Position numbers and translations under genes: made by a program. From Escherichia coli (GTDB lineage Bacteria > Pseudomonadota > Gammaproteobacteria > Enterobacterales > Enterobacteriaceae): 64,000 bases of DNA. Below are positions 310 through 18,162 of this stretch, piece after piece (the stretch's first letter is position 1; each line of letters opens with the position of its first letter). The notes beneath the pieces were generated by a model. That model was not told where the DNA came from, did not search any database, and was given only the letters and a program-made list of their open reading frames with translations. The stretch lies in the NCBI RefSeq assembly GCF_013315695.1, contig NZ_CP054353.1; one strand, given 5' to 3'.

Positions 310-351
310 AGCAATTTAGATAATCGTGCAGACTACGCCCCCTCATATCAC

Positions 352-777
352 ATGGAAGGTTTATCTATGGATCAGGTAGTCATTTTTAAACAAATATTTG
401 ATAAAGTTCGAAACGATTTAAACTATCAATGGTTTTATTCTGAGCTAAAACGTCACAATGTCTCACATTACATTTACTATTTAGCCACAGAGAATGTTCA
501 TATTGTATTAAAAAATGATAATACAGTGTTATTAAAGGGCCTAAAAAACATTGTGTCTGTCAAATTTTCAAAGGATAGGCATCTTATAGAAACGACCTCT
601 AATAAGCTGAAATCCAGAGAGATCACATTTCAGGAATACAGAAGAAACCTTGCTAAAGCAGGAGTTTTTCGGTGGGTTACAAATATCCACGAACAAAAAA
701 GATATTACTATACCTTTGATAATTCATTACTATTTACTGAAAGCATCCAGAAAACTACACAGATCTTACCACTCTAA
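352..777 (+). CDS. ydfO: Qin-like prophage protein YdfO (DUF1398-like)
   Basis: 141-aa ORF; position between ynfO and gnsB; true start may be the internal Met at 367. Confidence 0.6.
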
Positions 778-928
778 ACCATAACGTCCGGCTTCTCTCA
801 CTCCTGAGCCGGACTGCATTGGTTTAATAAAAACCATCAACAATTGTGATTTAGATATTCGGAACCATTCAAATATAACAAAACCCCGTAAAAACGAGGT
901 TTATGGATAAATTTTATTATTGAATACA

Positions 929-1102
929 TCAGATTAAATTAATCTTGACATCATAGCTTTCAAGACCCGTCATTTTTTCCCGTGCGGTAAACTGAATACT
1001 GGTAACTTCTTTCCCGGTCTTTTTCTTAAGTTCAATAATTTTTTTTGTTATATATTCAGAAATATCTGCTTCTGCTTTTGTTTTTAAGTTTTCAATATTC
1101 AT
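929..1102 (-). CDS. gnsB: GnsB-like small protein (57 aa)
   Basis: Manual translation of minus strand: atg aat att gaa aac tta aaa... (MNIENLK...), 57 codons to a TGA stop; below the ORF-track size cutoff. Confidence 0.7.
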   Translation of the reverse strand: MNIENLKTKAEADISEYITKKIIELKKKTGKEVTSIQFTAREKMTGLESYDVKINLI

Positions 1103-1273
1103 CATTTCCTCTTTTAGTCTGTTATGACTTTCCAGTTACACAGTAAGTCGATTATATGGTGCAAACGTGTAAAAGATAAGATGAAACATCGCAATAATCA
1201 ACATACGATAGTCTAAATTTTACACAAACAGACAAAGAGAATTTTCCTGAATTATCAATGCAATAGCATCAAA

Positions 1274-1429
1274 TCAACTCAAGAGCCTTATTGCTGCTTC
1301 CAGAATTTCTTCTGAAGTAACATGTCGATCCGCGGCTACATAAATGACTTTATGATCTCCGGTCAGAGATGGAAACCCTGCGGCCATTACAGTAAGGTGT
1401 GTTTTTTCGCCATTTGGATATTCACGCAT
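1274..1429 (-). CDS. ynfN: YnfN-like small prophage protein (51 aa from internal Met; ORF extends to 1546)
   Basis: ORF 1274..1546; the internal start MREYPNGEKTHL... gives the 51-aa length I recall for ynfN; start choice uncertain. Confidence 0.5.
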   Translation of the reverse strand: MREYPNGEKTHLTVMAAGFPSLTGDHKVIYVAADRHVTSEEILEAAIRLLS

Positions 1430-1775
1430 GATGGTGTTAACTCCAGTCATCGCTGGCACTACCACTGCTGGTTCAGAGTTAAAAAAAACTATGATTTTTT
1501 TCATGATGTTACCGTAGTATGTGAGTACCCATCGAATAGACACCAAGCAAAAAAGCTCCCGAAGGAGCCTTCATTTTCACTTTTTTAAATCCAACGACAG
1601 ACGGCTGGCATTTAAGTATTGTGAAATATTATCAAATGTAATCATCATTGATTTACAAAAGATACATTTTGCCCCGAAAGGATTCATGTCAGAAACATCA
1701 AAAGATGATGTTCTATACTGGGAACCATGACAACACGGGCATCTAAAGTGAATATGGTTTGTAATATTGTCTACC

Positions 1776-1988
1776 TCAAAGCGCCACTACATGAACAGCG
1801 GCAGGACCTTTAGGTCCGTTCTCAATACCAAATTCAACTTCCTGATTCTCAGTTAATGTTTTGAAATCGTTGCTCTGAATTGCTGAGAAATGGACAAACA
1901 CATCTTTGCTGCCATCTTTCGGCGTGATGAAACCAAAACCTTTTTCAGGGTTAAACCATTTCACTAAACCAGTCATTTTGTTAGACAT
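1776..1988 (-). CDS. cspI: Cold-shock protein CspI (CspA family)
   Basis: 70-aa [41 protein letters not shown]... with the RNP1/RNP2 motifs of the CspA family. Confidence 0.9.
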
Positions 1989-2353
1989 AATTATTACCTT
2001 TTGAAGAAATTAGCCCTTGGGCAGAATGGTCCGAAAAAAAATATCAGAGAGAAAAACCAACAAGGAAATCTCAAGAGGTACAAATAATAAAATTATAACA
2101 ATGACTGCTTCAGATAAATTTGTAACAAACCAGAACACCATTAACGCATGATTAACCACCCATAGCAAGGATTACTTTTGTAAAGAAAAACACAGCAATG
2201 AAAGAATAGCTTTATTTATTAATAAAACGTGTCATTCTGATTAAGACCTTTTATCTTACCCTTAAGATTTCAGGAATTTTGGCTCATGGAAGAGTCCTTT
2301 TTATTTAAATTTTACATTCCGCGATGTAAATGTTCCGATTTAATATTACCCTA

Positions 2354-3373
<1,020 letters not shown>

Positions 3374-3377
<4 letters not shown>

Positions 3378-3685
3378 AGATATTTATGATGAGGACGCTC
3401 GTGCTTATTGGCAGGATTTTCAATCTTAAAGGAGTACTGATGCTGCAGATAAGACTCAACTTTTTCTGACAATTTTTCTGCTACTTCCAGGAAGACTTGC
3501 CGGACGCTCCTTCTGGCTGCTGCCTCATAAAACTCCAGCGCAGCTCCTTCAACACGGTCCATGGCGACATCCAGGTCAAAAATTTCACCGTCAAAGCGTT
3601 CTTTGTCCTGTAAGGCTACAGTTACCGTAACTTTATTCTCAAAATTACGGACTCCTTTCACAACCAGTTCATAGTCTTGAGTCAT
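3374..3685 (-). CDS. ydfR: Prophage protein YdfR (function unknown)
   Basis: 103-aa ORF between the holin and lysozyme genes, overlapping the lysozyme start. Confidence 0.65.
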
Positions 3686-3689
3686 TGGA

Positions 3690-3905
3690 TTACTCTCCTC
3701 TCGCAGCCTTACGCCTGTCTTCTTTAATCTTGAAATAAAGATTTGTCAGATACGTCAGCAGGCCAAAAACCAGGCTACCCAGCACACCGATTGCAGCCCA
3801 CTGTGACGGAGTTACTTTATCGAGTAACTGCAATGCCCAGAAACCAGCATTACCCGCCGATGTGCCATAGGCAACACCTGTTGTTAACTTATCCATTGAT
3901 TTCAT
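3690..3905 (-). CDS. essQ: Class II holin/pinholin (S21-like), 71 aa
   Basis: ORF 3690..3980; internal start [71 protein letters not shown] matches the phage-21 pinholin pattern (two TM helices, charged C-tail). Confidence 0.8.
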
Positions 3906-4124
3906 ATCCTCACCCCGATGTACACGGATGGTGCAATATGTTTGAAAAGCTCGGAGTCTACGGGGTAGTTTTGACAGCACACGTTGTTCTCAACGGCGCT
4001 AAAAAAACATACACATTAAAAATGTGGGTAATTATTTTGAAAGAAAGTCATATATAAAATAATAATACGAGAAATGTTTTCATATTTAGTGTACTGTATA
4101 CGGCCATTTATACAGGAAAAGCCT

Positions 4125-4295
4125 ATGTCAGAACGTAAAAACTCAAAATCACGCCGTAATTATCTCGTTAAATGTTCCTGCCCAAACTGCACCCAAGAGT
4201 CAGAACACAGTTTTTCAAGAGTACAAAAAGGTGCCCTTTTGATCTGCCCTCATTGCAACAAAGTATTCCAGACAAATCTTAAAGCTGTAGCCTGA
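4125..4295 (+). CDS. Small zinc-ribbon protein (C-x2-C ... C-x2-C), hypothetical; possibly ynfU
   Basis: ORF 4074..4295; internal start MSERKNSKSRRNYLVKCSCPNCTQESEHSFSRVQKGALLICPHCNKVF preceded by AGGAAAA; two CxxC pairs. Confidence 0.35.
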   Translation: MSERKNSKSRRNYLVKCSCPNCTQESEHSFSRVQKGALLICPHCNKVFQTNLKAVA

Positions 4296-4350
4296 TTGAT
4301 TTTATTAGTAACAAGTATTTTTTATATTTTAATAATATATTTAAAGCAGA

Positions 4351-4377
4351 TAATAAAAAACCCGCCTGAGCGGGTTT
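4351..4377 (-). terminator. Rho-independent terminator (hairpin aaacccgc-ctga-gcgggttt plus T-run on minus strand) downstream of cspB
   Basis: Perfect 8-bp stem read directly; the minus strand continues with TTTTTTTATT. Confidence 0.6.
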
Positions 4378-4658
4378 GAGATTGTGGTGCTTTTTGTGGG
4401 AGTCATCCACTTACGCACTTTGTTTTGCCATGCCAGCAGTTAGCTTCTGCTGTAAAACTATTCATGCAGCAAACCTGCACTTCACCACAATGGTTAGCAT
4501 ACTTTTCCTGATTAAGATTTTGCCAAATATGCTAGCCATTGTTTCATGTATTGGACCTCCTTACTTTTTATTAAAGAGATCCAATATTCACTACTCTGTC
4601 CGTATCTCTACTCAGGCATCAGCCTTCTTCGTTATCGTATACAGACGAGCGATGAATT

Positions 4659-4874
4659 TTAATCAGTAATGATGACATTTGCTGCTGCAGGACCTTTAGC
4701 ACCACTCTCTATAGAGAAGGTAACCTTTTGACCTTCAAATAAGGTTCGATAATTATCATTCTGAATCGCAGAAAAATGCACAAACACATCTTTACTACCA
4801 TCAACAGGAGAAATAAAGCCGAAACCTTTATCAGCGTTAAACCATTTTACTAAACCAGTCATTTTATTTGACAT
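4659..4874 (-). CDS. cspB: Cold-shock protein CspB (CspA family)
   Basis: 71-aa [56 protein letters not shown]... Confidence 0.9.
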
Positions 4875-5174
4875 TCTACATTCCTTAACTTGAGCCTTTC
4901 GGCATAAATGGTTTGCATAACAGAAACGACTTCGTACTTAATTGGAGAGACTCAAAGAAGGAATAAGTGAATAACACCTGAAATGAGAACTGCTTTAGTA
5001 AACTACTTCGTATATCGTCTGTTCTTCAAACCGACGCAATCATTAACGCATAGTTGAACATATGAAGCAATGTTTATTTTAGACATCCAGCCATCTTCAA
5101 CCCCATCAAAAAACTATAGCTTTCTTCAGGAACGTGTGTATAGTGCGCCAAGTTATCAGTATTAAGGAATTTTT

Positions 5175-5387
5175 TTGTCCCGCAAAATGACAGGAATTGT
5201 CAAAACCTTTGACGGCAAAAGCGGCAAGGGTCTTATCACCCCATCCGATGGTCGTATCGATGTCCAGCTTCATGTTTCAGCGCTCAATCTCCGCGATGCA
5301 GAAGAAATTACCACCGGATTACGCGTGGAATTTTGCCGGATAAATGGTCTGCGTGGCCCTTCAGCTGCCAATGTTTACCTTTCATGA
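5175..5387 (+). CDS. cspF: Cold-shock-like protein CspF
   Basis: 70-aa [42 protein letters not shown]...; CspF/CspH subfamily, assigned cspF by position next to cspB. Confidence 0.8.
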
Positions 5388-5680
5388 GCTATATTAAAGC
5401 TTTAATTTCAGGCCCCATCGGATCACACATGGAGAGTTTTTATGAATAACCCCGTCTGTCTTGATGACTGGTTGATTGGCTTTAAAAGCTTATGCTGTAC
5501 TTTGGCCGTAATAGCTCTGCTAATAATATAATAAGCAGACTCATTGTGTTTAGGGACATTGTACTGGAAGAAAACATTTTAAACATCAGGCAAATAACCA
5601 AGTCACCAGCTAAATAATAAGTTAACAGACATGAGTCCCGGGATGAGATTCAACATTACCATTGCCCCATTTAAAGCACA

Positions 5681-5712
5681 AAACCCGCTCATCAGCGGGT
5701 TTTCTACTTTTT
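5681..5712. terminator. Hairpin terminator between cspF and the Q-like gene (aaacccgct-catc-agcgggttt followed by T-rich tract)
   Basis: Inverted repeat read directly; T-run on plus strand, weaker T-tract on minus strand; candidate late-operon tR-prime. Confidence 0.5.
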
Positions 5713-5808
5713 CTTAACGTCGGGTATACAAAGCCCATCGTTGAAAAAATTTTATCCATATTTTTTGAAAAATGCAAACATCATGTCGCCATCTTCAGCA
5801 AAAATCAT

Positions 5809-6561
5809 TTATCTCGTCACCTTCCTCAATTGCGCTTCCGCGTATGCTTCTTCCTGCCAGCACTTTGTTACCAGTTTACCAATGACGTCCGCATACCCCT
5901 TATACCACTGATAATCGGTCAGGTCTGGTACCAGCTTCTGGACATGACGTCGTGCCAGCGTGGTCGGTAAACGACTAAACCGGTTTCCATTACAACGCCC
6001 ACAAATCTTATATACCGGTACGCCATGAAACCGGGTTCTTTTTTCATCCAGAACAATCCCTTTACCCTTACACCCTCTGCACGCTGTGCTGGCTTCGCCC
6101 TTACCATGGCAATGCTGACATAGTTCCTTCACCCATTCTTCCTTGATTACAGATTCCCCGCGTCTGTAGTGTTTCACCACTTCGCGCAATACATTATAAA
6201 ATCCCGTACCTGAACAATGCTCACAGCGAGCCTTACTTGCCGCAGACCTGGAGTAATCAGCAAAGGCAAAACTCACGAGGTAAGGAATAATCTGTAACCG
6301 GATTTCTTCACTCAATTTGTTCAATGTCGGGTTATTCAGTGCCATCGCGTAATTTAGCAGGCCTTCAATCGCAAACTGAGGGTCCTGAACACCAACTTTT
6401 GCCAGAAATAAGGCCAACCCAAGTGGTGCTTTCGACTGCACCATCCCCTGCGCTGCCATTACATCCGTAATTGTTAAACAACCGGTGCCTGTCGCTGGAG
6501 CGTCATCGCTCAATTTTGGAGATTTTGGGGAGTAATATTTTGGTAAGGCTTCAAGGTTCAT
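5809..6561 (-). CDS. quuQ: Q-like late-gene antiterminator
   Basis: ORF 5809..6591; cysteine-rich zinc-binding region (CQHCHGKGEAS...CRGCKGKG...CGRCNGN) typical of lambdoid Q proteins; lies upstream of the lysis cassette on the same strand. Confidence 0.75.
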   Translation of the reverse strand: MNLEALPKYYSPKSPKLSDDAPATGTGCLTITDVMAAQGMVQSKAPLGLALFLAKVGVQDPQFAIEGLLNYAMALNNPTLNKLSEEIRLQIIPYLVSFAFADYSRSAASKARCEHCSGTGFYNVLREVVKHYRRGESVIKEEWVKELCQHCHGKGEASTACRGCKGKGIVLDEKRTRFHGVPVYKICGRCNGNRFSRLPTTLARRHVQKLVPDLTDYQWYKGYADVIGKLVTKCWQEEAYAEAQLRKVTR

Positions 6562-6574
6562 GCTCGTTCTCCAC

Positions 6575-7663
6575 TTACGCCAGTACGCCAATTGCCAGCG
6601 CGCGATCGATAAAACGAAATATCAGCTCCAGTTGGGAGCCATACTTATCTTCAAATGCCACTGTATCCGTATGCAGCTCGTTGTGATGCTTTCTGCACAA
6701 AGGCAACACAAAGAGATCATGTGCTTTTGTTCCCATTCCGCCCTGCCCGTGACCAATCAGATGATGCGGATCGTCGGCTGGCATACCGCAGCAAGCACAC
6801 GGCTGTGTCTTAACCCAACGTGTGTATTTCTCCTTAACCCAGCGGCGACGTTTAGGCAGCTTCATGAAAGATTCCGGAGACTCTGGATCAACGGTGATGC
6901 TTACCACCGTCTTTTCCTGTGGTGATTTTTGTTGCTGGTGGGCGTAAGGCAACGGTGCAAGATTTTTTGTGCGTTGTTTCAATATGCTGGTGGCGGTCTG
7001 CTCTCCCGGTACGATGTCGCTTTCGCGGTACACCGAGCAGATTTTTTCCGCTGGTAATCCCAGCGAACGACGCGATACAGCCTCAGGTAGTGCATCCACC
7101 ACCTGATTGCAGACCGCCCACCAGGATAATTCAGCCAAAGATAATTCCCGCTCCTGCGTACCGCTTATTGCGTGACGGATGACGTCAATCACCCATGCTG
7201 TCAGATTTTGTTGAGCAAGCAGCTCCAGTGATTCCGATGTCTGGTCACGCAGTTGGTTGTCGCAGTGCCAGCACAACACCATTGCGCCGGTACCATAACG
7301 GTGAATGACTGTTTCAGTGTGATGGTAATCGCCATTAGGCCACTGGCAGGATGTAACATGACGTAATAGCCAGTCGGACAATGCGCCAACGCCGCCAGCA
7401 GCACGAATCACCCGTTCGTTACTAAAAAACGGCAGCAATGTTTTGTCTTCCGCCAGCGGCTGGCGAACGGCAGGAACGACTCCGGATGGCAGATTACGCA
7501 TGCTTTTTGGTTCCGGTTCCACCAGCACTCGAGGATTATGAAATATCTGTATGGATTCACGGCCCGGCTTAAGGACCACCAGCCCAAGCTCAGGCACCAG
7601 AACAGGTCTAAGTAATACCCGCACGTTACCTCCAGATCCGTTGCTGGAAAGTGCGGGACGCAC
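6575..7663 (-). CDS. ydfU: Prophage protein YdfU (DUF968-like, His/Cys-rich motif)
   Basis: 362-aa ORF containing ...CCGMPADDPHHLIGHGQGGMGTKAHDLFVLPLCRKHHNELH...; position before the Q-like gene. Confidence 0.6.
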   Translation of the reverse strand: MRPALSSNGSGGNVRVLLRPVLVPELGLVVLKPGRESIQIFHNPRVLVEPEPKSMRNLPSGVVPAVRQPLAEDKTLLPFFSNERVIRAAGGVGALSDWLLRHVTSCQWPNGDYHHTETVIHRYGTGAMVLCWHCDNQLRDQTSESLELLAQQNLTAWVIDVIRHAISGTQERELSLAELSWWAVCNQVVDALPEAVSRRSLGLPAEKICSVYRESDIVPGEQTATSILKQRTKNLAPLPYAHQQQKSPQEKTVVSITVDPESPESFMKLPKRRRWVKEKYTRWVKTQPCACCGMPADDPHHLIGHGQGGMGTKAHDLFVLPLCRKHHNELHTDTVAFEDKYGSQLELIFRFIDRALAIGVLA

Positions 7664-7904
7664 GTGGTGGGCGTTCGGAATAAGGCAGCCTGACAGAGAT
7701 TATCCAGTGCCGATAGTCGAGACTGAGAGCTTTCTTAACCTCGAACCCGCGCCTGCGGTAAGAATGAATCAGCCATTCGGCCTGTTCTGCAGTGCATGGA
7801 GGGTGCCGGAACCATTCAGACTTGAATGCGTGAGAATACCGCCCGTGCGTGCAGGCAAGAACGGGCGAATTATCAGAATTGTAATATTTTGCGTTGCGTG
7901 CCAT
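7626..7904 (-). CDS. Hypothetical prophage protein (92 aa), overlaps the ydfU start in another frame
   Basis: ORF MARNAKYYNSDNSPVLACTHGRYSHAFKSEWF...; no family recognised. Confidence 0.35.
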   Translation of the reverse strand: MARNAKYYNSDNSPVLACTHGRYSHAFKSEWFRHPPCTAEQAEWLIHSYRRRGFEVKKALSLDYRHWIISVRLPYSERPPRASRTFQQRIWR

Positions 7905-7970
7905 CGGTTTTCTCCGGTGGCACGGTGTTACTCAGCGGGAGTTCAGCCCCGCGCAAGATTGTAGATGAGT

Positions 7971-8222
7971 TTATTCTTCTGAAAAAGCAGAAAAGCCAGC
8001 TTTTATTCCGATCTCTTTCAATACCTGTAATGAAGTGACAAACTCACCGTCGCGCAAGATAAATCCGTCCGTCACTCGGGCATCCACAAAATTAATTAAC
8101 GCAGCCCCATTTTTTTGCAAACACACAATGCGGTAATGACTAACAATATTTCCATTTTCAACGCACACAGCATAGAGGCCATCTTCACAAAAAATTTTAC
8201 GCAGTTCTTCGATGTTCATCAT
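7971..8222 (-). CDS. rem: Hypothetical 83-aa prophage protein; possibly Rem
   Basis: 83-aa ORF located between ydfU and hokD; length and position match my recollection of rem; weak assignment. Confidence 0.4.
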   Translation of the reverse strand: MMNIEELRKIFCEDGLYAVCVENGNIVSHYRIVCLQKNGAALINFVDARVTDGFILRDGEFVTSLQVLKEIGIKAGFSAFSEE

Positions 8223-8340
8223 CAGAATCCTTCCGGATAATTAGCTCTCCCCTTTAAGGGACCATCCCTCTTATCCCTGCGCGCTACTTAAGTATTTTTG
8301 ATTCTATTCCGGCACCGTCCAGAACTTCAAATGCGTTGAA

Positions 8341-8370
8341 AATAAAAACAAAAACCCGCCGAAGCGGGTT
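8341..8370 (-). terminator. Rho-independent terminator of the relB-relE-hokD operon
   Basis: Hairpin aacccgc-cgaa-gcgggtt with a T-run on the minus strand, ~70 bp downstream of the hokD stop. Confidence 0.65.
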
Positions 8371-8438
8371 AAGTGCGGGTGCGTTGAGAATGCCTGCCAC
8401 ATCAGAGGTGGCGAGGGATTTCTCCCTCGCCGGGTCTC

Positions 8439-8594
8439 TTACTCCTCAGGTTCGTAAGCTGTGAAGACAGCGACCTCCGTCTGGCCGGTTCGGATTCGTA
8501 CCTCGCAGAGGTCTTTCCTCGTTACCAGTGCCGTCACTATGACGGTTAAACAGATGACGATCAGGGCGATTAACATCGCCTTTTGCTGCTTCAT
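8439..8594 (-). CDS. hokD: Hok-family type I toxin HokD/RelF (51 aa)
   Basis: Manual translation: MKQQK... at 8594 and ...EPEE-stop at 8439; 52 codons; below the ORF-track cutoff. Confidence 0.8.
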   Translation of the reverse strand: MKQQKAMLIALIVICLTVIVTALVTRKDLCEVRIRTGQTEVAVFTAYEPEE

Positions 8595-8665
8595 AGCCTG
8601 CTTCTCCTGTCAACGCAAAGCAGAAGTGTCACCTTCGGTGCGAAACAGAGATGTCATGCTTTGGT

Positions 8666-8953
8666 TCAGAGAATGCGTTTGACCGCCTCGCTATATACTT
8701 CCGAGCGTTCTCTTTTCCCAACAGAAATCACGAAAACGACAACTTTCTCGTCTATAACCTGGTATACAAGGCGATAGCCTGAAGACCGGAGCTTAATCTT
8801 GTAACAATCAGGCATACCACGGAGCTTGTTTGCTTCAATCCGGGGTGACTCAAGTACTTCAACCAGCTTCTTTTTCAACTGTTCACGTACCGTCGAGCCC
8901 AGCTTTCGCCATTCCTTTAGTGCCCGCTCGTCAAAATCCAGAAAATACGCCAT
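8666..8953 (-). CDS. relE: RelE mRNA interferase toxin
   Basis: 95-aa ORF MAYFLDFDERALKEWRKLGSTVREQLKKKL...; start overlaps the relB stop. Confidence 0.9.
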   Translation of the reverse strand: MAYFLDFDERALKEWRKLGSTVREQLKKKLVEVLESPRIEANKLRGMPDCYKIKLRSSGYRLVYQVIDEKVVVFVISVGKRERSEVYSEAVKRIL

Positions 8954-9192
8954 CAGAGTTCATCCAGCGTCACACGTACTGGCTTAGGATTACGAAGCCG
9001 TTCTTTCACTATCTCCACAAGTTCAGCATCTTCATCACTCAGGAGTGTCTGTTTGAACGGCAAGCGTTCATTGTCAGCGATATACTCGAGCATGAGACGA
9101 AGCGCTTCAGAAGGAGTTACACCCATTTTTTCAAGCGCGGCGTAAGAACGCGCTTTAAGTTCATCGTCAATACGCAGGTTAATGCTACCCAT
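8953..9192 (-). CDS. relB: RelB antitoxin
   Basis: 79-aa ORF MGSINLRIDDELKARSYAALEKMGVTPSEALRLML... (ribbon-helix-helix type). Confidence 0.9.
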   Translation of the reverse strand: MGSINLRIDDELKARSYAALEKMGVTPSEALRLMLEYIADNERLPFKQTLLSDEDAELVEIVKERLRNPKPVRVTLDEL

Positions 9193-9203
9193 GTCTTACA
9201 CCT

Positions 9204-9229
9204 CTTGTAATTACAAATGTCATTACAAG
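9204..9229 (-). promoter_or_regulatory. relBE operator region: two adjacent palindromes TTGTAATTACAA and TTGTAATGACAT just upstream of relB
   Basis: Inverted repeats read directly, 12 bp upstream of the relB start codon. Confidence 0.6.
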
Positions 9230-9522
9230 TATCGCACTACAACATGCTTAGGGCAAGTCACGAAGGAAGTCAGAAAGTAGTCGTAAGAACGGTGATCACT
9301 GTCCGCTTTGTGCCAGGAGCAGCCATTGCTAAGTCCATCCTGTATTGTGCAGGTCAGCTCGTTTTTAAAGAGTCCGGCCATCATCTTACTGGTACAGACA
9401 CCATATACTTTGTGACGGTCAGGCTACATATGCACAACTCAACTTATTCATCTATTTTTTGCTTTAGCATGTCAGTGTTGCTTTCTCGTCGGCGGGTGAG
9501 CGGTGACCTGACCTGTCGATAA
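9217..9522 (+). CDS. ydfV: Prophage protein YdfV (hypothetical)
   Basis: 101-aa ORF divergent from relB; positional assignment. Confidence 0.45.
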   Translation: MSLQVSHYNMLRASHEGSQKVVVRTVITVRFVPGAAIAKSILYCAGQLVFKESGHHLTGTDTIYFVTVRLHMHNSTYSSIFCFSMSVLLSRRRVSGDLTCR

Positions 9523-9674
9523 AGGAACGTAACACGTTTTATGCAACACCCGCATGCGGCAGAAAATTATTGCCGAACGTTTACCCCTGTCAACAAGCTT
9601 TACTTTCTGAGGCGCGCCAGCCCGCGAGGAAAACAATCTGAACATCAAACAATTAATGACACAAGAAATACGAT

Positions 9675-9701
9675 TAAAGATTTTTTTGTGCATGCCGATA
9701 G
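9675..9701 (+). promoter_or_regulatory. Sigma-28 (FliA) type promoter: TAAAGATT-N11-GCCGATAG upstream of flxA
   Basis: Match to the class 3 flagellar promoter consensus TAAAGTTT-N11-GCCGATAA read directly; ~25 bp upstream of the flxA start. Confidence 0.6.
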
Positions 9702-9724
9702 TGCTTTTTTAAAAGGAGAAATCT

Positions 9725-10057
9725 ATGTCTGTCACAATTCAGGGAAATACCTCAACCGTTATTTCAAACAACTCCGCCCCGGAAGGAACATCAGAAATAG
9801 CCAAAATCACAAGACAAATTCAGGTGCTGACTGAAAAGCTTGGGAAAATCTCATCGGAAGAGGGGATGACGACACAGCAGAAAAAAGAAATGGCTGCATT
9901 GGTACAGAAGCAAATTGAAAGCCTCTGGGCTCAACTGGAGCAGTTGTTAAGGCAGCAGGCAGAGAAAAAGAATGAAGACGCGACAGTTCAGCCTGATAAA
10001 AAAGAAGAGAAAAAAGACGATACAAATACCGCTGGCACCATTGATATTTACGTCTAA
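9725..10057 (+). CDS. flxA: FlxA (FliA-regulated protein)
   Basis: 110-aa ORF MSVTIQGNTSTVISNNSAPEG... with a coiled-coil-like middle and Lys/Glu-rich tail. Confidence 0.8.
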   Translation: MSVTIQGNTSTVISNNSAPEGTSEIAKITRQIQVLTEKLGKISSEEGMTTQQKKEMAALVQKQIESLWAQLEQLLRQQAEKKNEDATVQPDKKEEKKDDTNTAGTIDIYV

Positions 10058-10429
10058 GTGACAGCCGTATTGTGGCCCTCATCGGGCCACTTTTCGCCAT
10101 CAGCCTTTTCTTTAAAGACATATTATCTTTGTATCATTTCTGATAGTTAACATTACAAGATATAAGTAATGGACGCACTCCCAATTAGTCTATTTAAATC
10201 GCCACGAGTTTAACTGACAACCCATGATCAATTATGAATTGCAACTATTTCTGTAGTCACTTTTGTGGGGACAGTCCACAAAACTGCCAACTTCCGCTTC
10301 TTGCTCTTAGCGGACATTAGCATAGGCTATTTACCATAACGCCTCATTACGCGCACCGCCCAGACTGACTCAGCGCGTTTCTGGCATATCCCCGGTAAAA
10401 CAAGTAACAAACCACCCGAAAATGAACAC

Positions 10430-11900
10430 CAGAAACGCGACTTAAGAATCTACCCTATGAATGGATATGCACTCAACCGAATCGATCTTGGTTTCAATCT
10501 TTTTTATCGGGATCAGGCTTCTTTTTAGGTAACTTCGGGGGCTTAACTTGCTGATGACTTTGCGTTCGGCGCGTAAGCCAGGGATGGTCAGCTTTAGGTT
10601 TAACATAGTATTTTGAGCGTAAATCAATACGGGCATTATCCACTCGTTCATGGACACTCTTTTCATCATCCAGTGGTATAGGCTCCGGGCCATCAACATA
10701 CTTTTCCCAGCCCAGCGCTTTCCCGTCATACAGAACGTTAATTTCACCGTCAAAGTTCTCGCATACAGTAACAACCGAATGCCTAAGTCGATATCCCCGG
10801 CCCTCACTGCGTACCTGAAACGCACTGCTTTTGTACTGGAAAGTGAGATTTTTAGACAGAACGCGCTTCGCCTGTAGGCTGAAGATATAACCCAGTTCCT
10901 CTTCAGAATGGTGCACATCAAGATGAGCATTATCAGTAGTACGAGGCGACGTAGCGAACCGGTTGTTATAGGCTTCAATAAAGGTCGGCAACCATGCATT
11001 TGCTGTTTCAATATCACTGATATTCTGAAGCCGCATTTCTTTGACCAGCCTGTCCTGTAGTGTCTGATTGGCGCGCTCTACCCGCCCTTTTGCCTGCGGG
11101 CTGTTGGCATGGATTGGCTCGATGCCCAGTGTCTTTATCGCACGAGTGAACTGGGTCAGCTCACCTTCCCGCTCTGGGTTATTTACCCTGAATATACTGT
11201 GTCTATCAGAGTAGAGAGCGAGCGGTACGCCATGATCATTAAGGTAACCCCGGAGGGTTTCCATGTAAGCCCGGGTTGTTTCAGCAGGCACAAAACGCAA
11301 CGCCATCAACGCACTGGTGGCATCATCAATGAAAACGATCAGTGTACATCTGGGGCCTCGATTTTCAAACCAGTCATGAGGTGAGCCATCAATCTGGATC
11401 AGTTCACCGTAAGATGGTCGTCGCATGCGGCGTTGATATATACGGGCAATTTTACGACGGCGTTCACGCCATAACCCCTCTTCTATCATCCACTTTCTGA
11501 GAGTTTCAACGGATAAAGATAAACCGTGTATCTCGCGCAATTTTTCGCACGCAAACGTAGGTCCAAAATCAGCGTAACGGCCTTTGAGGAGTGAAATTAC
11601 TGTTGCTCTGAATTCAGTAGAAAAGGAATTATTAGGACGCTTTCCACGTCGGTGGGAAACCAGAGCAGAAGGCCCTTCATTTCTATACCGTTGCACCAGA
11701 CGTTTAACCTGCCGAATAGAAATGCCAATGCGTGCCGCAGCTTGTTCCTGAATAATCTGAAGTCGGTGGAGTTCCTTATGACTCATCGTAACAGTCTCTT
11801 TGATCATGAAAAATCCCCCAGAGAATTGTCTGGGGACATTTTAGAATGGTTCAAAGGGGACATTACAGCTTGGTGTTAACAATAGCCTGCTTCTCCGTGC
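10430..11900 (-). mobile_element. Probable insertion sequence carrying a single DDE (rve-type) transposase; boundaries approximate
   Basis: Single 437-aa transposase ORF flanked by non-coding DNA with GGGGACA-type repeats and a candidate imperfect terminal repeat (AGGCTATT... at ~10330 and ~11885); ends not resolved. Confidence 0.4.
10494..11807 (-). CDS. DDE transposase, integrase-core (rve) type with N-terminal HTH (IS481/ISNCY-like)
   Basis: 437-aa ORF with N-terminal HTH (AARIGISIRQVKRLVQRY) and core ...IDGSPHDWF...FIDDATS...YSDRHSIF...SPQAKGRVERANQTLQDRL... Confidence 0.6.
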   Translation of the reverse strand: MIKETVTMSHKELHRLQIIQEQAAARIGISIRQVKRLVQRYRNEGPSALVSHRRGKRPNNSFSTEFRATVISLLKGRYADFGPTFACEKLREIHGLSLSVETLRKWMIEEGLWRERRRKIARIYQRRMRRPSYGELIQIDGSPHDWFENRGPRCTLIVFIDDATSALMALRFVPAETTRAYMETLRGYLNDHGVPLALYSDRHSIFRVNNPEREGELTQFTRAIKTLGIEPIHANSPQAKGRVERANQTLQDRLVKEMRLQNISDIETANAWLPTFIEAYNNRFATSPRTTDNAHLDVHHSEEELGYIFSLQAKRVLSKNLTFQYKSSAFQVRSEGRGYRLRHSVVTVCENFDGEINVLYDGKALGWEKYVDGPEPIPLDDEKSVHERVDNARIDLRSKYYVKPKADHPWLTRRTQSHQQVKPPKLPKKKPDPDKKD

Positions 11901-12141
11901 CTTTCGGCACGTAAGAGGCTAACCTACATGTGTCTAGCATGAAATTGGCCTCAGATTAATGTTAAGCGTCTTGCAGGACGCGTAATGTTAACTGGGGCTT
12001 TTCTCTATCTGCCGTTGGTGTCCATGCCCGAGGCAGATAGCCTCAAGCACCCGCAGTCATTCTACTTAACTAAGATTTCCCCGCAAACCGTTTTTGTCCA
12101 GCACAGTAAATATCCAACTAAACCAATGGAGTTCGCTGTAT

Positions 12142-12321
12142 TTACCGCCAGTATTCAATGCACATGACCGCCATGAACACCCCTAAAAAAAGGGCATTTA
12201 TATATCCAAATATTAATATCAAAACATCAACTTTTTCCATATACCTTGCTGTGAAGATGATGGGCATACATGATGCGAACAACCAGAACGCAACAAACAA
12301 AAACTGCAATGCGTTTTTCAT
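12142..12321 (-). CDS. Small hydrophobic two-TM protein (59 aa), hypothetical
   Basis: ORF 12142..12360; internal start MKNALQFLFVAFWLFASCMPIIFTARYMEKVDVLILIFGYINALFLGVFMAVMCIEYWR preceded by a strong AGGAGG Shine-Dalgarno. Confidence 0.4.
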   Translation of the reverse strand: MKNALQFLFVAFWLFASCMPIIFTARYMEKVDVLILIFGYINALFLGVFMAVMCIEYWR

Positions 12322-13473
12322 TATTCCTCCTACAATCAATGTGCAATTACATTTAAACACACCTCAATTTGGCCGGACATATAAATATCTAAACCAGAAA
12401 AAATCACTTACATAGCGTTACAAACTCTTTAGTCTAAAGGTTCATCGTAAAACATTCCCCATACTTATCAGTCCGTTCCGCGCCAGGTAGCTCATTGCCT
12501 TATCTGGCAACCTGTAATCAGGTTTCCGCTTTTTCAGTTGGCTGGTCGTTTAACCGACATAGTTAATCCATTAATCTAGTTGCCGGATGTTGGTGGATTT
12601 TCGCGTTTTAGTTGTTCATAAAAGTGCACAGCTTTAACCAGTTCTTCTGATGTAACTGGGACTGGTGAGGCAGTGAATAAGGCCTGAATTTGATAGTTCG
12701 GCCTGTCGTTACAATCCTCTTTTTTCGGTACATATTTCCAGTCACCAGACCACTACTTCCCCTGAAAGTCCGTAACGCCTTTTTTTACGTAGCGATATCG
12801 CCATGCCACTGGTTTTGCTTGCCCCGCCGTTTCATGCCCTTCCTGATAATTAATCTCGCTCATTCATCGCCCCACTCATCACAATATGCTTCGACCGGAG
12901 TTTTTCCCGCTTCATAGTCATCACGCTAGGATTCGACATCAGCAGCACTTCCACCGCGTAACTCACCATAGTCCATTAATAGTTCATCCCGCTCTTCAAA
13001 ACTGATGTTATATTTAGCTGAACAAAAATCAGCCACTTTGTTCTTCCTCATCGTCTTTTATTTCGTGGTATGAGTAATTGCAGTAGTTAAAGAAAATTTC
13101 TTATGCTCCGTCATGAATTTCCTCAGGTGTTGCGTCATCGTCCACTTCGAATACATCCTCAAAATCTCCACCAGCTATTCCCGTTTCAATAATAATTTTG
13201 AACTTTCGCATTTCACTACCGCCCTTTCGGGCGGCCTCCTGATGTTCTGAGGGTGCAGAAATCCATCCGGTTAAGGATTAAATTTTATTTACAGAACTGA
13301 ATTTAATTATTCAGATATACGTATCTGTAGCCTTACGAATCTACTCACTGGATGCCTCTTTCATAAAAATAATCCAGTGGGTTTTATCGTTTTTTCCCTG
13401 TTCGTTGACAGATAACAGGTTTTCTGTCTGTCAGTGCCAGAATCTGGCTTACCGGTATTTGCGTTTCATTCCA

Positions 13474-13830
13474 TTAAAAAATCAGAACGCCGTGCGGCCT
13501 CAACACCCGAAAGGCTTCTTTAAATCTCTGTCGCGAATCATCACGCCAGGCATCTTTATTCAGCCGTCCATATTTCTTTCCCATCCAGGCGTTATCACCA
13601 ACACTCTCAAGATGCGGAGGGTCTAATACAACCATCGAAAAAGATGCGTCTGCAAATGATAATGCACGAAAATCTGCGATAATGTCAGGGCTGATAATCA
13701 AGCGTCTCCCATTGCGTAATGTGTATCCTTCTTTTCTGATATCGCTGAATATCGCCCGTTCGTCAGACTTATCGAACCAGAACATGCGGCTGCCACAGCA
13801 CATATCAAGAATGGTTGCCGGTGCACTCAC
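13474..13830 (-). CDS. DNA methyltransferase-like protein, probably C-terminally truncated
   Basis: 118-aa ORF with SAM-binding-like motif ILDMCCGS and catalytic-like motif VVLDPPH; ends abruptly after PHGVLIF. Confidence 0.4.
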   Translation of the reverse strand: MSAPATILDMCCGSRMFWFDKSDERAIFSDIRKEGYTLRNGRRLIISPDIIADFRALSFADASFSMVVLDPPHLESVGDNAWMGKKYGRLNKDAWRDDSRQRFKEAFRVLRPHGVLIF

Positions 13831-14249
13831 TGCGCCACGTCCTGAAAATTACCCTGATAGAAAGCCAGTATGCGCTGCATAACTTCGCTCTTCCGGCACT
13901 CGCGACAGATTATGTTTAGGCGACTGTCGTAGCGACGTATTTCTCCGTCAGGTGATGACCAGATAAGGTCCGGATCAACCACAGCAGGTTTCTTCACCTT
14001 TGCCCTCGAGAGTTTTTTGCGGGCGTTTTGCCAGTCCTTACGCGCCTGTTCAGAGGGGAATAACCCGTAGCCGGAGTTGTATACATCGCCACTGGCTACC
14101 AGCTCTCTGGCAAGAACGCTCATCAGATATCTAGTCGCACCTGTTTTAGCTTCCAGTTGCCGTAACGTCTCACGGCCGCTCTGGCGCACGAGTTCCACCA
14201 CCTGCCATTTAATTTTTTCCCGCTCTTCTTGTGTAAAAACTTTTGCCAC
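13827..14249 (-). CDS. Hypothetical phage early-region protein (140 aa)
   Basis: ORF between the replication-initiator-like gene and the methyltransferase-like gene, overlapping start/stop; no family recognised. Confidence 0.35.
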   Translation of the reverse strand: MAKVFTQEEREKIKWQVVELVRQSGRETLRQLEAKTGATRYLMSVLARELVASGDVYNSGYGLFPSEQARKDWQNARKKLSRAKVKKPAVVDPDLIWSSPDGEIRRYDSRLNIICRECRKSEVMQRILAFYQGNFQDVAQ

Positions 14250-14289
14250 AAGTCCCCCTTAAAATTACCTCATGACCTGAAATCAACAC

Positions 14290-15255
14290 TTATCCTCTGA
14301 AACCAGGCGGAATTTCTGTATCCGGTTCAGAAATATGATTAACACAACGCTGTACAGGTGAACGTCCCAGGCGGATGACCAGTTCGTCCCATTTTTCGCG
14401 GAGCTTTGACGGGCTCATGATGTTTTTTACCCAGAATGGATCTCGCTGAACCCGACCAAACATTTCGCAAATTTGTCTGTGGCTTCTGCCATCCAGCATC
14501 CGCATTGTGCGCACGTCATTGGCCCAGGCAGTCCAGTTAGGCTCTTTTGGTCGCATGATCTCGCCATCATCACTGGCTGCCTGTTCGTAGAGACCCACGA
14601 TCCGCCCCCAGATCCACTGCGCACACGCCAAATCCTCCCTGCTACCCCACTGGCGTTTTTTCGCACTAAACACAACCGCGTCGGAGTTCCGGGTTAAAAA
14701 ATCCTGTTCAGTCGTCTGCGGGTCCGGTTGCGAAGCTTCCGGACGAAAAGTGTTTTTATTCTCTGTAGTAATCTCTGTTGTATTCTCTGTAAGATCATCA
14801 GGCCATTTTGACCCGATGACATTGGGTCGTTTTGAACCAATGGAGCGTTTCATTTTGACCTCTTCCATCGTGTCATTTTGACCTGATGGAGCGGCGCATT
14901 TTGAACCGATGGATTCGCTCAATTTGCCACCATCTAAAAGCTCGCTCCCATAGTTGATCGTGTAGAAATTGGTCATATCGCGCTTTGATTTATTGAGCTT
15001 TTCACAACGCAAAAGCCCCAGCGTTTTCAGACTTGCAAACGCGCGCTTTAACGTTGACTCTGACCAGAATGGGAACTGTTCCAGCCATTGTTCCGTTGTG
15101 TTATAAATCCAGCGAACACCATCACATTCCATGCCGGAGTTGGTATCTCTCAACCAGTAGTGCAGTTGTTGCAAAACAATGGCTTCGTTTAAGCCAATTT
15201 TCATTGCCAGCTGCGTGTTTATAACCAGTGGGCGTTCAGCAAAAAGAAGGCTCAT
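14290..15255 (-). CDS. Phage replication initiator-like protein (lambda O-like), iterons inside the coding sequence
   Basis: ORF 14290..15309 (likely start MSLLFAERPL at 15255); the SIGSK...SIGSK...VIGSK peptide repeats are encoded by a DNA iteron array. Confidence 0.5.
   Translation of the reverse strand: MSLLFAERPLVINTQLAMKIGLNEAIVLQQLHYWLRDTNSGMECDGVRWIYNTTEQWLEQFPFWSESTLKRAFASLKTLGLLRCEKLNKSKRDMTNFYTINYGSELLDGGKLSESIGSKCAAPSGQNDTMEEVKMKRSIGSKRPNVIGSKWPDDLTENTTEITTENKNTFRPEASQPDPQTTEQDFLTRNSDAVVFSAKKRQWGSREDLACAQWIWGRIVGLYEQAASDDGEIMRPKEPNWTAWANDVRTMRMLDGRSHRQICEMFGRVQRDPFWVKNIMSPSKLREKWDELVIRLGRSPVQRCVNHISEPDTEIPPGFRG
14803..14935. repeat. Iteron array (~6 copies of CATTTTGA(A/C)C(C/T)GATGG at ~23-bp spacing); candidate prophage replication origin
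   Basis: Repeats read directly at ~14803, 14827, 14850, 14873, 14896 and 14919. Confidence 0.6.
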
Positions 15256-15757
15256 AATTCCATCCAGCTTTTTGTTGGTATTGCTGTCGATACGCAAGTT
15301 TGAAAGCAATTGCTTTTTCTATAAGTTCGTCAGTTTCACGATCCACTACGGCAGGATCAGCAAAAAGCAGTCCGGACTCCACCACATCGCCATATTCTTT
15401 GTTTAACCCGGCGATCATGCACGTGATGCTTTTTCCGTCAGTAATTTCACGATACAACCTGAAATCATTAATCCGGATAGCCTCCATAATTGCAGGCACT
15501 AGCGCCGTGAACTTTTCACGCTTATCCCTAGTGTCGATAGCCTTCCAGCGTTCAAATATCTTCACTCGATTAACGCCAAGCGCTCGCTGATCAATCGCGC
15601 CACCTTCATATGTGACACGCTGAACATCGATGTTCGGGCGCTCTTTCAAAGCCCAGAATGCTTCAGTGATTAATATCGTCGCCTGCTCCTGTGTCATTCC
15701 TGGTCGACATATCCAGGCATCCAGAGCCTCACGAGCCTGTTCAGGAGTGATTTTCAT
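15236..15757 (-). CDS. Hypothetical phage early protein downstream of the Cro-like gene (173 aa)
   Basis: ORF overlapping the dicC stop; no family recognised. Confidence 0.4.
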   Translation of the reverse strand: MKITPEQAREALDAWICRPGMTQEQATILITEAFWALKERPNIDVQRVTYEGGAIDQRALGVNRVKIFERWKAIDTRDKREKFTALVPAIMEAIRINDFRLYREITDGKSITCMIAGLNKEYGDVVESGLLFADPAVVDRETDELIEKAIAFKLAYRQQYQQKAGWNYEPSFC

Positions 15758-15971
15758 TGTTCAACCGCCCCGCCCGCTTCGTCTTACGATATTCATCATA
15801 AACTTTGGGATCATACTGAAGCTCCCCGCCAGATGCCTCCTGTAGACGCATCGCGCGACCTTCGGGAACTAAATCCCCTTTCCAGCTATAAAGCGAAGCC
15901 AAACGAATACCTGCTGCTTGTGCAAGTTTTGTTTTTGAACCGAAATACAAAAGAGCGTCAGTTTTAAGCAT
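15741..15971 (-). CDS. dicC: DicC, Cro-like regulator of dicB
   Basis: 76-aa ORF MLKTDALLYFGSKTKLAQAAGIRLASLYSWKGD... (HTH), divergent from dicA. Confidence 0.8.
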   Translation of the reverse strand: MLKTDALLYFGSKTKLAQAAGIRLASLYSWKGDLVPEGRAMRLQEASGGELQYDPKVYDEYRKTKRAGRLNNENHS

Positions 15972-15988
15972 TTAAAACACCTTTATTG

Positions 15989-16052
15989 TTAGTCATAACT
16001 AACAAGATAGATGTTAACAAAAACATAGTCAATACGATTTAGCATTAGCTAA
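15989..16052. promoter_or_regulatory. dicA-dicC intergenic operator region with palindromes TTAGTCATAACTAA and TTAGCATTAGCTAA
   Basis: Inverted repeats read at 15989-16002 and 16039-16052 between divergent HTH regulator genes. Confidence 0.55.
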
Positions 16053-16054
16053 CT

Positions 16055-16462
16055 ATGGAAACAAAAAATTTAACTATCGGCGAACGCATCAGGTATCGTC
16101 GGAAAAACCTCAAACACACCCAAAGGTCTCTTGCTAAAGCCCTGAAAATCTCCCATGTGTCTGTATCACAATGGGAACGGGGTGATAGTGAACCTACAGG
16201 GAAGAACCTTTTTGCCCTCAGCAAAGTATTGCAATGCTCACCAACATGGATTCTATTTGGCGATGAAGACAAGCAACCAACACCACCTGTTGAGAAGCCA
16301 GTTGCCTTATCCCCCAAAGAACTAGAGCTCCTTGAGCTGTTTAATGCACTGCCAGAATCAGAACAGGATACCCAGCTCGCCGAAATGCGAGCTCGAGTAA
16401 AAAACTTCAATAAACTCTTTGAAGAATTACTAAAAGCCCGTCAGCGGACAAATAAAAGATAA
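16055..16462 (+). CDS. dicA: DicA, HTH repressor of the dicB operon
   Basis: 135-aa ORF METKNLTIGERIRYRRKNLKHTQRSLAKALKISHVSVSQWERG... (Xre-type HTH). Confidence 0.9.
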   Translation: METKNLTIGERIRYRRKNLKHTQRSLAKALKISHVSVSQWERGDSEPTGKNLFALSKVLQCSPTWILFGDEDKQPTPPVEKPVALSPKELELLELFNALPESEQDTQLAEMRARVKNFNKLFEELLKARQRTNKR

Positions 16463-16534
16463 CATCATCAATGAGTTATCTTTTACCACATCAATTATGT
16501 TAGCTATAGCATACAAAATCACTTGACCGATATG

Positions 16535-16548
16535 TTAGTCATGGCTAA
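16535..16548. promoter_or_regulatory. Third copy of the DicA-operator-like palindrome (TTAGTCATGGCTAA) upstream of ydfA/dicB operon
   Basis: Same palindrome family as in the dicA-dicC intergenic region. Confidence 0.5.
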
Positions 16549-16628
16549 TCTTGTTTGCATCAACACACCGCACGGTGTTCTCAGCAAACAGTTCCGCTAC
16601 CCCAGCGTTAAGGGGAAATGAGGTCAGC

Positions 16629-16784
16629 ATGGATACTATCGATCTTGGCAACAACGAATCTCTGGTGTACGGCGTGTTTCCAAACCAGGACGGCACGTTC
16701 ACCGCAATGACGTATACCAAAAGCAAAACGTTTAAAACCGAAAATGGTGCCCGTCGCTGGCTGGAAAGAAACTCAGGTGAGTGA
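16629..16784 (+). CDS. ydfA: YdfA (51 aa)
   Basis: Internal start MDTIDLGNNESLVYGVFPNQDGTFTAMTYTKSK... within ORF 16551..16784. Confidence 0.7.
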   Translation: MDTIDLGNNESLVYGVFPNQDGTFTAMTYTKSKTFKTENGARRWLERNSGE

Positions 16785-16785
16785 T

Positions 16786-16914
16786 ATGGATTTCGACACA
16801 ATCATGGAAAAGGCTTACGAAGAATACTTCGAAGGCCTTGCCGAAGGCGAAGAAGCTCTCAGCTTCAGTGAGTTTAAACAGGCGCTTTCCAGTTCGGCAA
16901 AATCTAACGGCTGA
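16786..16914 (+). CDS. ydfB: YdfB (42 aa)
   Basis: Manual translation MDFDTIMEKAYEEYFEGLAEGEEALSFSEFKQALSSSAKSNG-stop. Confidence 0.65.
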   Translation: MDFDTIMEKAYEEYFEGLAEGEEALSFSEFKQALSSSAKSNG

Positions 16915-16943
16915 TAAGCGAAACAGCACCGCGAGGAATCAGT

Positions 16944-17162
16944 ATGCAGAAACGAGAACCCGTCATCATCGCGCCAGACTATACCGATGATGAACTTTAT
17001 GAGTGGATGCGCCAGAAAATTAATGCAGCGCAGGATCTGAAATGGGCTAATGAAGCCAGGGCTAAGCAGGCTGAAAATCTGTTCTCTCTGGAGCAGGATA
17101 TCACCAGGCTGGAAAAAGCAGCGGCATTAAGCATTGCCAGAATGATTACATACCCGCGTTAA
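16944..17162 (+). CDS. ydfC: YdfC (72 aa)
   Basis: ORF MQKREPVIIAPDYTDDELYEWMRQKINAAQDLKWANEARAK... Confidence 0.75.
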   Translation: MQKREPVIIAPDYTDDELYEWMRQKINAAQDLKWANEARAKQAENLFSLEQDITRLEKAAALSIARMITYPR

Positions 17163-17502
17163 TAGCTAACCAACGAAGCTAAGGTTGGTAATTAAGGAGT
17201 TCTCCACGGGTGAGGTGGAGTGCGTGCGCCGGACACGGGTGAGCATCCGGCACTGACAGTTTACTGAAAGGATATTTCCATGAAAAGTCAGACCATAACG
17301 CGAAAGCGCACGGCGAGGTAGCTGGTTCATAGATAGCCTGTCGTTAAATTTTCGTCGACCGTGCGCTTCCGGTTGTGGCAACCCGCGAAATGGCGCGGCG
17401 GTAAGTATGGCGGGGTTATTCCTTCCCCGTTGAGGACACCGGGTTGTCAGGTTGACCATACGCTTAAGTGACAACCCCGCTGCAACGCCCTCTGTTATCA
17501 AT

Positions 17503-17557
17503 TTTCTGGTGACGTTTGGCGGTATCAGTTTTACTCCGTGACTGCTCTGCCGCCCTT
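17503..17557 (+). ncRNA. dicF: DicF small regulatory RNA (anti-ftsZ)
   Basis: Sequence TTTCTGGTGACGTTTGGCGGTATCAGTTTTACTCCGTGACTGCTCTGCCGCCC followed by TTTTT matches DicF as I remember it; directly upstream of dicB. Confidence 0.8.
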
Positions 17558-17729
17558 TTTAAAGTGAATTTTGTGATGTGGTGAATGCGGCTGAGCGCAC
17601 GCGGAACAGTTAAAACCAAAAACAGTGTTATGGGTGGATTCTCTGTATCCGGCGTTAATTGTTAACTGGTTAACGTCACCTGGAGGCACCAGGCACTGCA
17701 TCACAAAATTCATTGTTGAGGACGCGATA

Positions 17730-17918
17730 ATGAAAACGTTATTACCAAACGTTAATACGTCTGAAGGTTGTTTTGAAATTGGTGTCACTATCAGTAACCC
17801 AGTATTTACTGAAGATGCCATTAACAAGAGAAAACAAGAACGGGAGCTATTAAATAAAATATGCATTGTTTCAATGCTGGCTCGTTTACGTCTGATGCCA
17901 AAAGGATGTGCACAATGA
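17730..17918 (+). CDS. dicB: DicB cell-division inhibitor (62 aa)
   Basis: Internal start MKTLLPNVNTSEGCFEIGVTISNPVFTEDAINKRKQERELLNKICIVSMLARLRLMPKGCAQ in ORF 17625..17918. Confidence 0.85.
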   Translation: MKTLLPNVNTSEGCFEIGVTISNPVFTEDAINKRKQERELLNKICIVSMLARLRLMPKGCAQ

Positions 17919-18106
17919 ATTCAGCATTTGTGCTTGTTCTGACAGTTTTTCTTGTTTCCGGAGAGCCAGTTGATATTGCAGTCAGTGTTCACAGGACAAT
18001 GCAGGAGTGTATGACTGCAGCAACCGAACAGAAAATTCCCGGTAACTGTTACCCGGTCGATAAAGTTATTCACCAGGATAATATCGAAATCCCGGCAGGT
18101 CTTTAA
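17915..18106 (+). CDS. ydfD: YdfD (63 aa)
   Basis: Internal start MNSAFVLVLTVFLVSGEPVDIAVSVHRTMQECMTAA... in ORF 17861..18106; start overlaps the dicB stop. Confidence 0.75.
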   Translation: MNSAFVLVLTVFLVSGEPVDIAVSVHRTMQECMTAATEQKIPGNCYPVDKVIHQDNIEIPAGL

Positions 18107-18162
18107 AACAGTTCCGTAATAAATATCCGGTTTCATTCTTATATGCCAACAATGGCAGGGAT

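Follow-up and report, generated by a model that had tools for sequence, protein, structure and literature searches.

The flagellar genes are expressed in a hierarchy in which FlhDC activates fliA and, once the hook-basal body has been completed, FlgM is exported and the sigma factor FliA (sigma-28) is set free. This ordering, from FlhDC through fliA to FlgM export, has been summarised by Fitzgerald (2014; PMC4183435). In the same work, the promoter of flxA is counted among the well-characterised FliA-dependent promoters without obvious flagellar function (PMC4183435, citing Ide & Kutsukake 1997), and, according to the title of Ide & Kutsukake (1997; Gene 199:19, as cited in PMC4183435), flxA is unnecessary for motility. 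Binding of FliA has been reported by ChIP-seq in motile MG1655, where the flxA motif is exactly TAAAGATTTTTTTGTGCATGCCGATAGT, a 28-mer with a FAT score of 16 (Fitzgerald 2014, Table 2, PMC4183435); the motif is centred on 1644394 and the peak 17 nt farther downstream, on 1644411. RNA-seq in that study gave a normalised flxA expression of 280 for the motile wild type and of 2 for ΔfliA, a difference marked as significant; this loss is about as complete as those of tar, tsr, yhjH and ycgR (PMC4183435). In array experiments, flxA has been found 28.4-fold down in a fliA deletion and 8.2-fold up five minutes after FliA induction/overexpression (Zhao 2007, PMC1935009), and genomic SELEX with the sigma-28 holoenzyme has placed a peak of 23.2 in the spacer between ydfV and flxA (Shimada 2017, PMC5493296). 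RegulonDB holds the promoter as flxAp (ECK120009886), with a start at 1644412 and the evidence codes HIPP/AIPP (Table S3, PMC4183435). In the K-12 annotation, flxA belongs to the Qin prophage; it is preceded by ydfV and by hokD-relE-relB, which are on the opposite strand, and followed by ydfW, dicC and dicA. The codes HIPP/AIPP on the start are presumably those of an inferred promoter position; the 5' end of flxA has no entry in the Cappable-seq and SMRT-Cappable-seq supplements.

The DNA analysed here is a 64-kb stretch of an Escherichia coli genome, called the window throughout, whose positions 9200-10400 have the same sequence (100% identity) in E. coli K-12 MG1655 and in over 1000 other complete E. 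coli genomes. Promoter, leader and gene are the same as those of K-12, and the flanking ydfV and relBE-hokD are also common to both. The features of the locus are as follows.

9675-9682, plus strand: -35 element of flxAp, TAAAGATT, read directly; 7 of 8 positions as in TAAAGTTT
9683-9693, plus strand: spacer of flxAp, TTTTTGTGCAT, 11 nt, read directly
9694-9701, plus strand: -10 element of flxAp, GCCGATAG, read directly; 7 of 8 positions as in GCCGATAA
9708, plus strand: flxAp transcription start according to RegulonDB, corresponding to NC_000913.2 position 1644412
9714-9718, plus strand: Shine-Dalgarno sequence AGGAG of flxA, 6 nt 5' of the ATG, read directly
9725-10057, plus strand: flxA coding sequence, 110 aa, stop included, from the open reading frame list, with PF14282 and the RefSeq annotation on identical DNA
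10072-10095, plus strand: probable intrinsic terminator of flxA, GTGGCCC-TCATC-GGGCCAC followed by TTTTC, inferred from the RNA fold

A preliminary description of this DNA, made from its letters, had placed a near-consensus FliA promoter at 9675-9701, about 25 bp upstream of flxA, and had proposed that FliA drives the gene. Both boxes and the 11-nt spacer are found exactly there on the plus strand, and the 23 nt from the end of the -10 element to the ATG at 9725, with the Shine-Dalgarno sequence between them, agree with the distance given. Compared with the FliA consensus TAAAGTTT-N11-GCCGATAA, 14 of 16 positions match, the two non-consensus bases being the last of the -10 element (G for A) and the sixth of the -35 element (A for T), and this is the only match with two mismatches or fewer on either strand of the 64-kb window. 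As for the control by FliA, the ChIP-seq signal on the same 28-mer, the RNA values in ΔfliA, the arrays and the SELEX peak all bear it out, the DNA being identical to that of K-12; these experiments were published for K-12, a strain different from that of the window. Since Ide & Kutsukake (1997) and Fitzgerald (2014) cover identical DNA, flxAp was already known: it is a real but ordinary promoter, published in detail. A TAAAGTTT-like -35 element, a GCCGATAA-like -10 element and an 11-nt spacer are common to flxAp and to the class 3 promoters of fliC, tar, motA, flgM, tsr, yhjH and ycgR, and the -35 element TAAAGATT is identical to that of the published FliA site of flgMN (PMC4183435). The differences from the canonical class 3 promoters are that flxAp serves a gene of a mobile element, dispensable for motility, and that G replaces A as the final base of its -10 element. 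With near-consensus boxes, 11-nt spacing, FliA binding, fliA dependence (these two from the K-12 literature) and conservation all present, we regard it as very nearly certain that 9675-9701 is flxAp, a sigma-28 promoter by which flxA is expressed as a class 3 gene and probably as an autonomous unit of a lambdoid prophage of the Qin/PhiR42_1 type.

The proposed course of expression would begin with the induction of fliA by FlhDC and the departure of the anti-sigma factor FlgM from the cell after completion of the hook-basal body. Free FliA would then guide RNA polymerase to flxAp, contacting TAAAGATT at -35 and GCCGATAG at -10 across the 11-nt spacer, so that flxA, as a late (class 3) gene of the flagellar regulon, would be switched on only after both of these events. 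Transcription would start at about 9708, 7 nt past the -10 element; the RegulonDB start was mapped to this position by the capital T in the promoter sequence printed in Table S3 of PMC4183435. The predicted mRNA is monocistronic, with a 17-nt leader carrying the AGGAG ribosome-binding site, its product would be the 110-residue FlxA, and it probably terminates at the hairpin at 10072-10095. This terminator-like structure, 3' of flxA, has a 7-bp GC-rich stem and the 61-nt piece that contains it folds with -18.1 kcal/mol (z -2.9). It was not called by a consensus terminator scan because its T-run amounts to only four T.

The 541-bp segment that comprises promoter and gene is present in 1202 of 5426 complete E. 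coli genomes, always with at least 99% identity. It has also been found on 19 plasmids of Enterobacter, Salmonella, Edwardsiella and E. coli (98.4-100% identity), one of them a 6.5-kb mobilizable plasmid of Edwardsiella tarda. Four plasmids were opened (NZ_MF925337.1, NZ_CP096189.1, NZ_AP024282.1, and NZ_CP075634.1); all four carry the relBE-ydfV-flxA block with an intact sigma-28 promoter, three of them a hok gene as well, and in two flxA is unannotated and possibly disrupted. In every E. coli or plasmid copy that was fetched (at least 98.4% identity) flxAp is identical, so these near-identical copies are uninformative on selection or constraint. A scan of genome contigs with a peptide pattern was discarded as a source of homologues, as it returned only two near-identical loci, one of them a probably contaminated Collinsella metagenome-assembled genome. 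The contig concerned (Collinsella sp., JAIJJM010000167.1, 5.5 kb) encodes a 100% identical FlxA and is almost certainly misbinned E. coli DNA.

Divergent homologues are more informative. In Enterobacter sp. HG048 and in a metagenome contig, whose FlxA proteins have 85% identity, the gene is preceded by TAAAGATA-TTTTATTGCGT-GCCGATAG at the same distance from the ATG, and in a homologue with 65-67% identity by TAAAGTCT-TTTCATGTAAT-GCCGATAC, the rest of the upstream flank being unalignable. In these closer homologues (85% and 65-67%) the spacer and the flanks have diverged, but TAAAG...N11...GCCGATA is retained at an unchanged distance; in a four-way alignment of the diverged upstream regions, GCCGATA and the GGAGAAAT of the Shine-Dalgarno region are invariant. 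An exhaustive profile search yielded 57 representatives of the FlxA family, and the context was examined for seven further members, from Enterobacter, Pantoea, Superficieibacter and metagenomes, whose identity to the FlxA of the window ranges from 43% down to about 25-30%. In all seven, a FliA-type pair is present upstream of the gene, with 24-32 nt from the end of its -10 element to the ATG, as listed below.

L015, metagenome: TAAATTTC-N11-GCCGATAT
L017, metagenome: TAAAGATT-N11-GACGATAA
L018, Enterobacteriaceae metagenome contig: TCAAGCCT-N12-GCCGATAA
L019, metagenome: TCAACTTT-N11-GCCGATAA
L021, Enterobacter roggenkampii: TCAAGCTA-N11-GCCGATAC, 4 mismatches
L022, Pantoea: TCAAGTCG-N11-GCCGATAA
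L023, Superficieibacter: TGGTGTTT-N11-GCCGATAA

Over all 11 loci of the family, the distance from the end of the -10 element to the ATG is 23-32 nt, and G(C/A)CGATA is present in every one. A FliA match with at most three mismatches is found in 10 of these 11 independent loci, the eleventh having four, against a background of at most 0.015 such matches per 250 nt (all fetched DNA, true sites included). The 11-nt length of the spacer is likewise kept in 10 of 11, its sequence being free to vary. What appears to be new here, judged from the upstream motifs, is that a FliA-type promoter has been kept in every divergent FlxA-family gene examined, chromosomal copies included. A full-text literature search for 'FlxA-like' found no paper, and for this reason both the family-wide FliA promoter and the chromosomal home described next may be unreported.

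By synteny, the distant chromosomal copies lie outside prophages. In the Enterobacteriaceae metagenome contig (L018), in Pantoea (L022) and in Superficieibacter (L023), the order is gltX, three tRNA-Val genes, tRNA-Lys, the flxA-like gene and a LysR gene of the yfeR type, followed in the two longer loci (L022 and L023) by yfeH, ypeB and ligA. The yfeR-yfeH-ypeB-ligA side of this arrangement can also be seen in L019 and in E. roggenkampii (L021); in the latter a pyruvate-kinase-like gene is upstream instead of gltX, and no tRNA genes were found. At the corresponding position of the gltX-yfeR locus, E. coli has xapR and yfeN, and no FlxA-like sequence was found there. We consider it probable that sigma-28 control already existed in the ancestor of the FlxA family and that the gene brought it into a lambdoid phage and, later, onto plasmids, because a single origin of the promoter before the diversification of the family is more economical than repeated gains. 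The alternative is that flxAp arose within the prophage, the flagellar regulon having gained a phage gene afresh instead of a mobile element having captured a regulon gene along with its promoter. It would agree with the facts that in E. coli the copies of flxA are solely in Qin-like prophages or on plasmids, that the gltX-yfeR locus of this species is without such a gene, and that the nearest relatives (85%) adjoin integrase/transposase genes or phage lysis genes; but the distant members in conserved chromosomal synteny near yfeR, all with a FliA-type promoter at the same distance, and the economy of one origin make it improbable. If the ancestral reading is followed to its end, FlxA-like genes could be an ancestral and so far unrecognised class 3 flagellar member across the Enterobacterales, with their home beside yfeR and, in the majority of genera examined, also beside gltX and the tRNA genes, with copies in about a fifth of E. 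coli strains on a Qin/PhiR42_1-type phage or on plasmids, where the sigma-28 promoter is intact, and maybe with a role tied to flagella, a proposal that we put forward as tentative. On this view flxA would be seen less as a prophage gene recruited to flagellar control than as a conserved gene of the flagellar regulon that mobile elements have acquired.

The protein itself matches Pfam PF14282 (FlxA) with 53.8 bits (cutoff 26.3), residues 7-101 being aligned to profile positions 2-96 of 101. In an AlphaFold model (mean pLDDT 66.9) for which 18 family sequences were aligned, residues 1-21 at the N-terminus are disordered, residues 24-42 and 50-87 form a helical hairpin predicted with confidence, and the tail is again disordered; the C-terminal end IDIY(V/I) is family-wide. 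A sequence profile search of the PDB with FlxA returned nothing beyond designed coiled coils and similar coiled-coil background, and a Foldseek search of the model against the PDB gave nothing at E of 0.001 or below. We know of no benefit of flxA to host or phage. The family-wide sigma-28 promoter is a reason to seek a motility-linked function: if the family is an ancestral flagellar member, FlxA might be an export substrate or a partner of the flagellar secretion apparatus, or might aid the phage in motile hosts.

The preliminary description had also spoken of the promoter as linking a cryptic-prophage gene to the flagellar regulon. The FliA dependence stands, but the link is not peculiar to the prophage, as chromosomal FlxA-family genes share the promoter type. 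The term cryptic comes from K-12, and it may not apply to the prophage of the window strain, to judge by its collinearity with a known phage: window positions 1-19302 and 20617-23678 are collinear (99.6-99.7%) with Escherichia phage PhiR42_1 (PV340562.1, 48.7 kb, host ECOR13), excisionase and integrase included, and the sole break is an IS2 (19303-20616) within the exonuclease VIII gene. The Qin prophage of K-12, unlike that of the window, has lost 4.8 kb (window 10679-15477), and its integrase end is not intact. Strain MSB1_4I is 100% identical to the window over 9000-14000 and 99.8% over 1-20616.

PhiR42_1 carries an identical flxA, and in this phage flxA and ydfV have the replication genes on one side and the Q antiterminator on the other and are read on the strand opposite to cro, cII, O, relBE, hokD, rem and Q. 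This opposite orientation, together with its own promoter and the terminator-like hairpin, suggests that flxA is an independently transcribed insert. Prophage 'morons' are autonomous promoter-gene-terminator units inserted in lambdoid genomes. Several traits of flxA are moron-like, namely its own promoter, the terminator-like hairpin, its orientation against the phage units and the occurrence of the block also on plasmids; it differs from a typical moron in depending on an alternative sigma factor of the host and not on a constitutive sigma-70 promoter. Downstream of flxA and ydfW there is an intact 437-aa transposase reading frame (10494-11807, minus strand). This ISNCY-family transposase is annotated as incomplete by RefSeq in the strain that is 100% identical over 9000-14000, appears as two reading frames in the PhiR42_1 annotation and is missing from K-12 at the same place. 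Searches with Rfam at the gathering score added the following RNA features in the prophage.

11881-12052, minus strand: sok antitoxin RNA, of a second hok/sok-type locus downstream of flxA
17504-17555, plus strand: DicF sRNA
1749-2134 and 4643-5035, both minus strand: cspA-type thermoregulator leaders, of cspI and cspB

The strength of the FliA match was assessed in two ways. Matches to the consensus with two mismatches or fewer are expected 0.05 times per window, and 5 of 100 dinucleotide-preserving shuffles contain one; since 0.69 are already expected at three mismatches or fewer, it is the two-mismatch level that is decisive for flxAp. With a weight matrix made from the -35 and -10 columns of 19 published FliA sites, flxA excluded, flxAp ranks first of 128,000 positions with 19.3 bits (the runner-up has 15.1), a score attained in one of 50 block-shuffled windows. 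In this sense flxAp serves as a positive control, a true alternative-sigma promoter that is recoverable from raw sequence. On the plus strand, a promoter scan of 9200-10400 found no sigma-70-like promoter.

On the other hand, the start-site compendium for MG1655 records no flxA start at the FliA promoter; the one start that it assigns to the gene, at 1644170 (+), is of the sigma-70/sigma-38 type and falls inside ydfV, at window 9466 (Cho 2014). This start implies that some FliA-independent read-in into flxA may exist at low FliA. The missing start fits low FliA activity in the culture and at most weak read-in, and the record does not contradict the ΔfliA result. That the match is due to chance, with transcription of flxA coming from a different promoter or from read-through that begins at the ydfV start under sigma-70/sigma-38, as that record and the frequency of three-mismatch matches might suggest, is extremely improbable, being effectively refuted by the fall of flxA RNA in ΔfliA and opposed as well by the ChIP-seq peak on the motif, the low chance rate at two mismatches, the result of the sigma-70 scan and the persistence of the motif in homologues with diverged flanks.

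The gene that holds this start, ydfV (9217-9522, plus strand), is an annotated 101-aa reading frame between relB and flxA for which Pfam gave no match. An antisense transcript start overlaps ydfV in addition to the sense start reported inside it, and its status as a protein-coding gene is doubtful. At 9566-9593 on the minus strand, about 370 nt upstream of relB, there is a near-consensus sigma-70 promoter (TTGACA-16-AATAAT, 11 of 12 positions) that is directed leftward, antisense to ydfV. For relB-relE-hokD, a start on the minus strand has been listed at 1644259, corresponding to window 9555 (Cho 2014), and from these two observations a relBE transcript with a long leader probably begins there.

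Elsewhere in the window, the FliA matrix also matches at 56766-56793 (minus strand), inside a 467-aa reading frame (55905-57308), and at 19036-19063 (minus strand), inside the prophage exonuclease gene and in a segment absent from K-12. Both, at 56793(-) and 19063(-), were set aside as FliA sites, their 15 bits being within the range of shuffled sequence. Finally, a further match of the matrix, TAATATTTTGCGAGTTCACGCCGAAATA at 48784-48811 (minus strand), is identical to the weak 'pntA' FliA ChIP site (Fitzgerald 2014, Table 2, PMC4183435).
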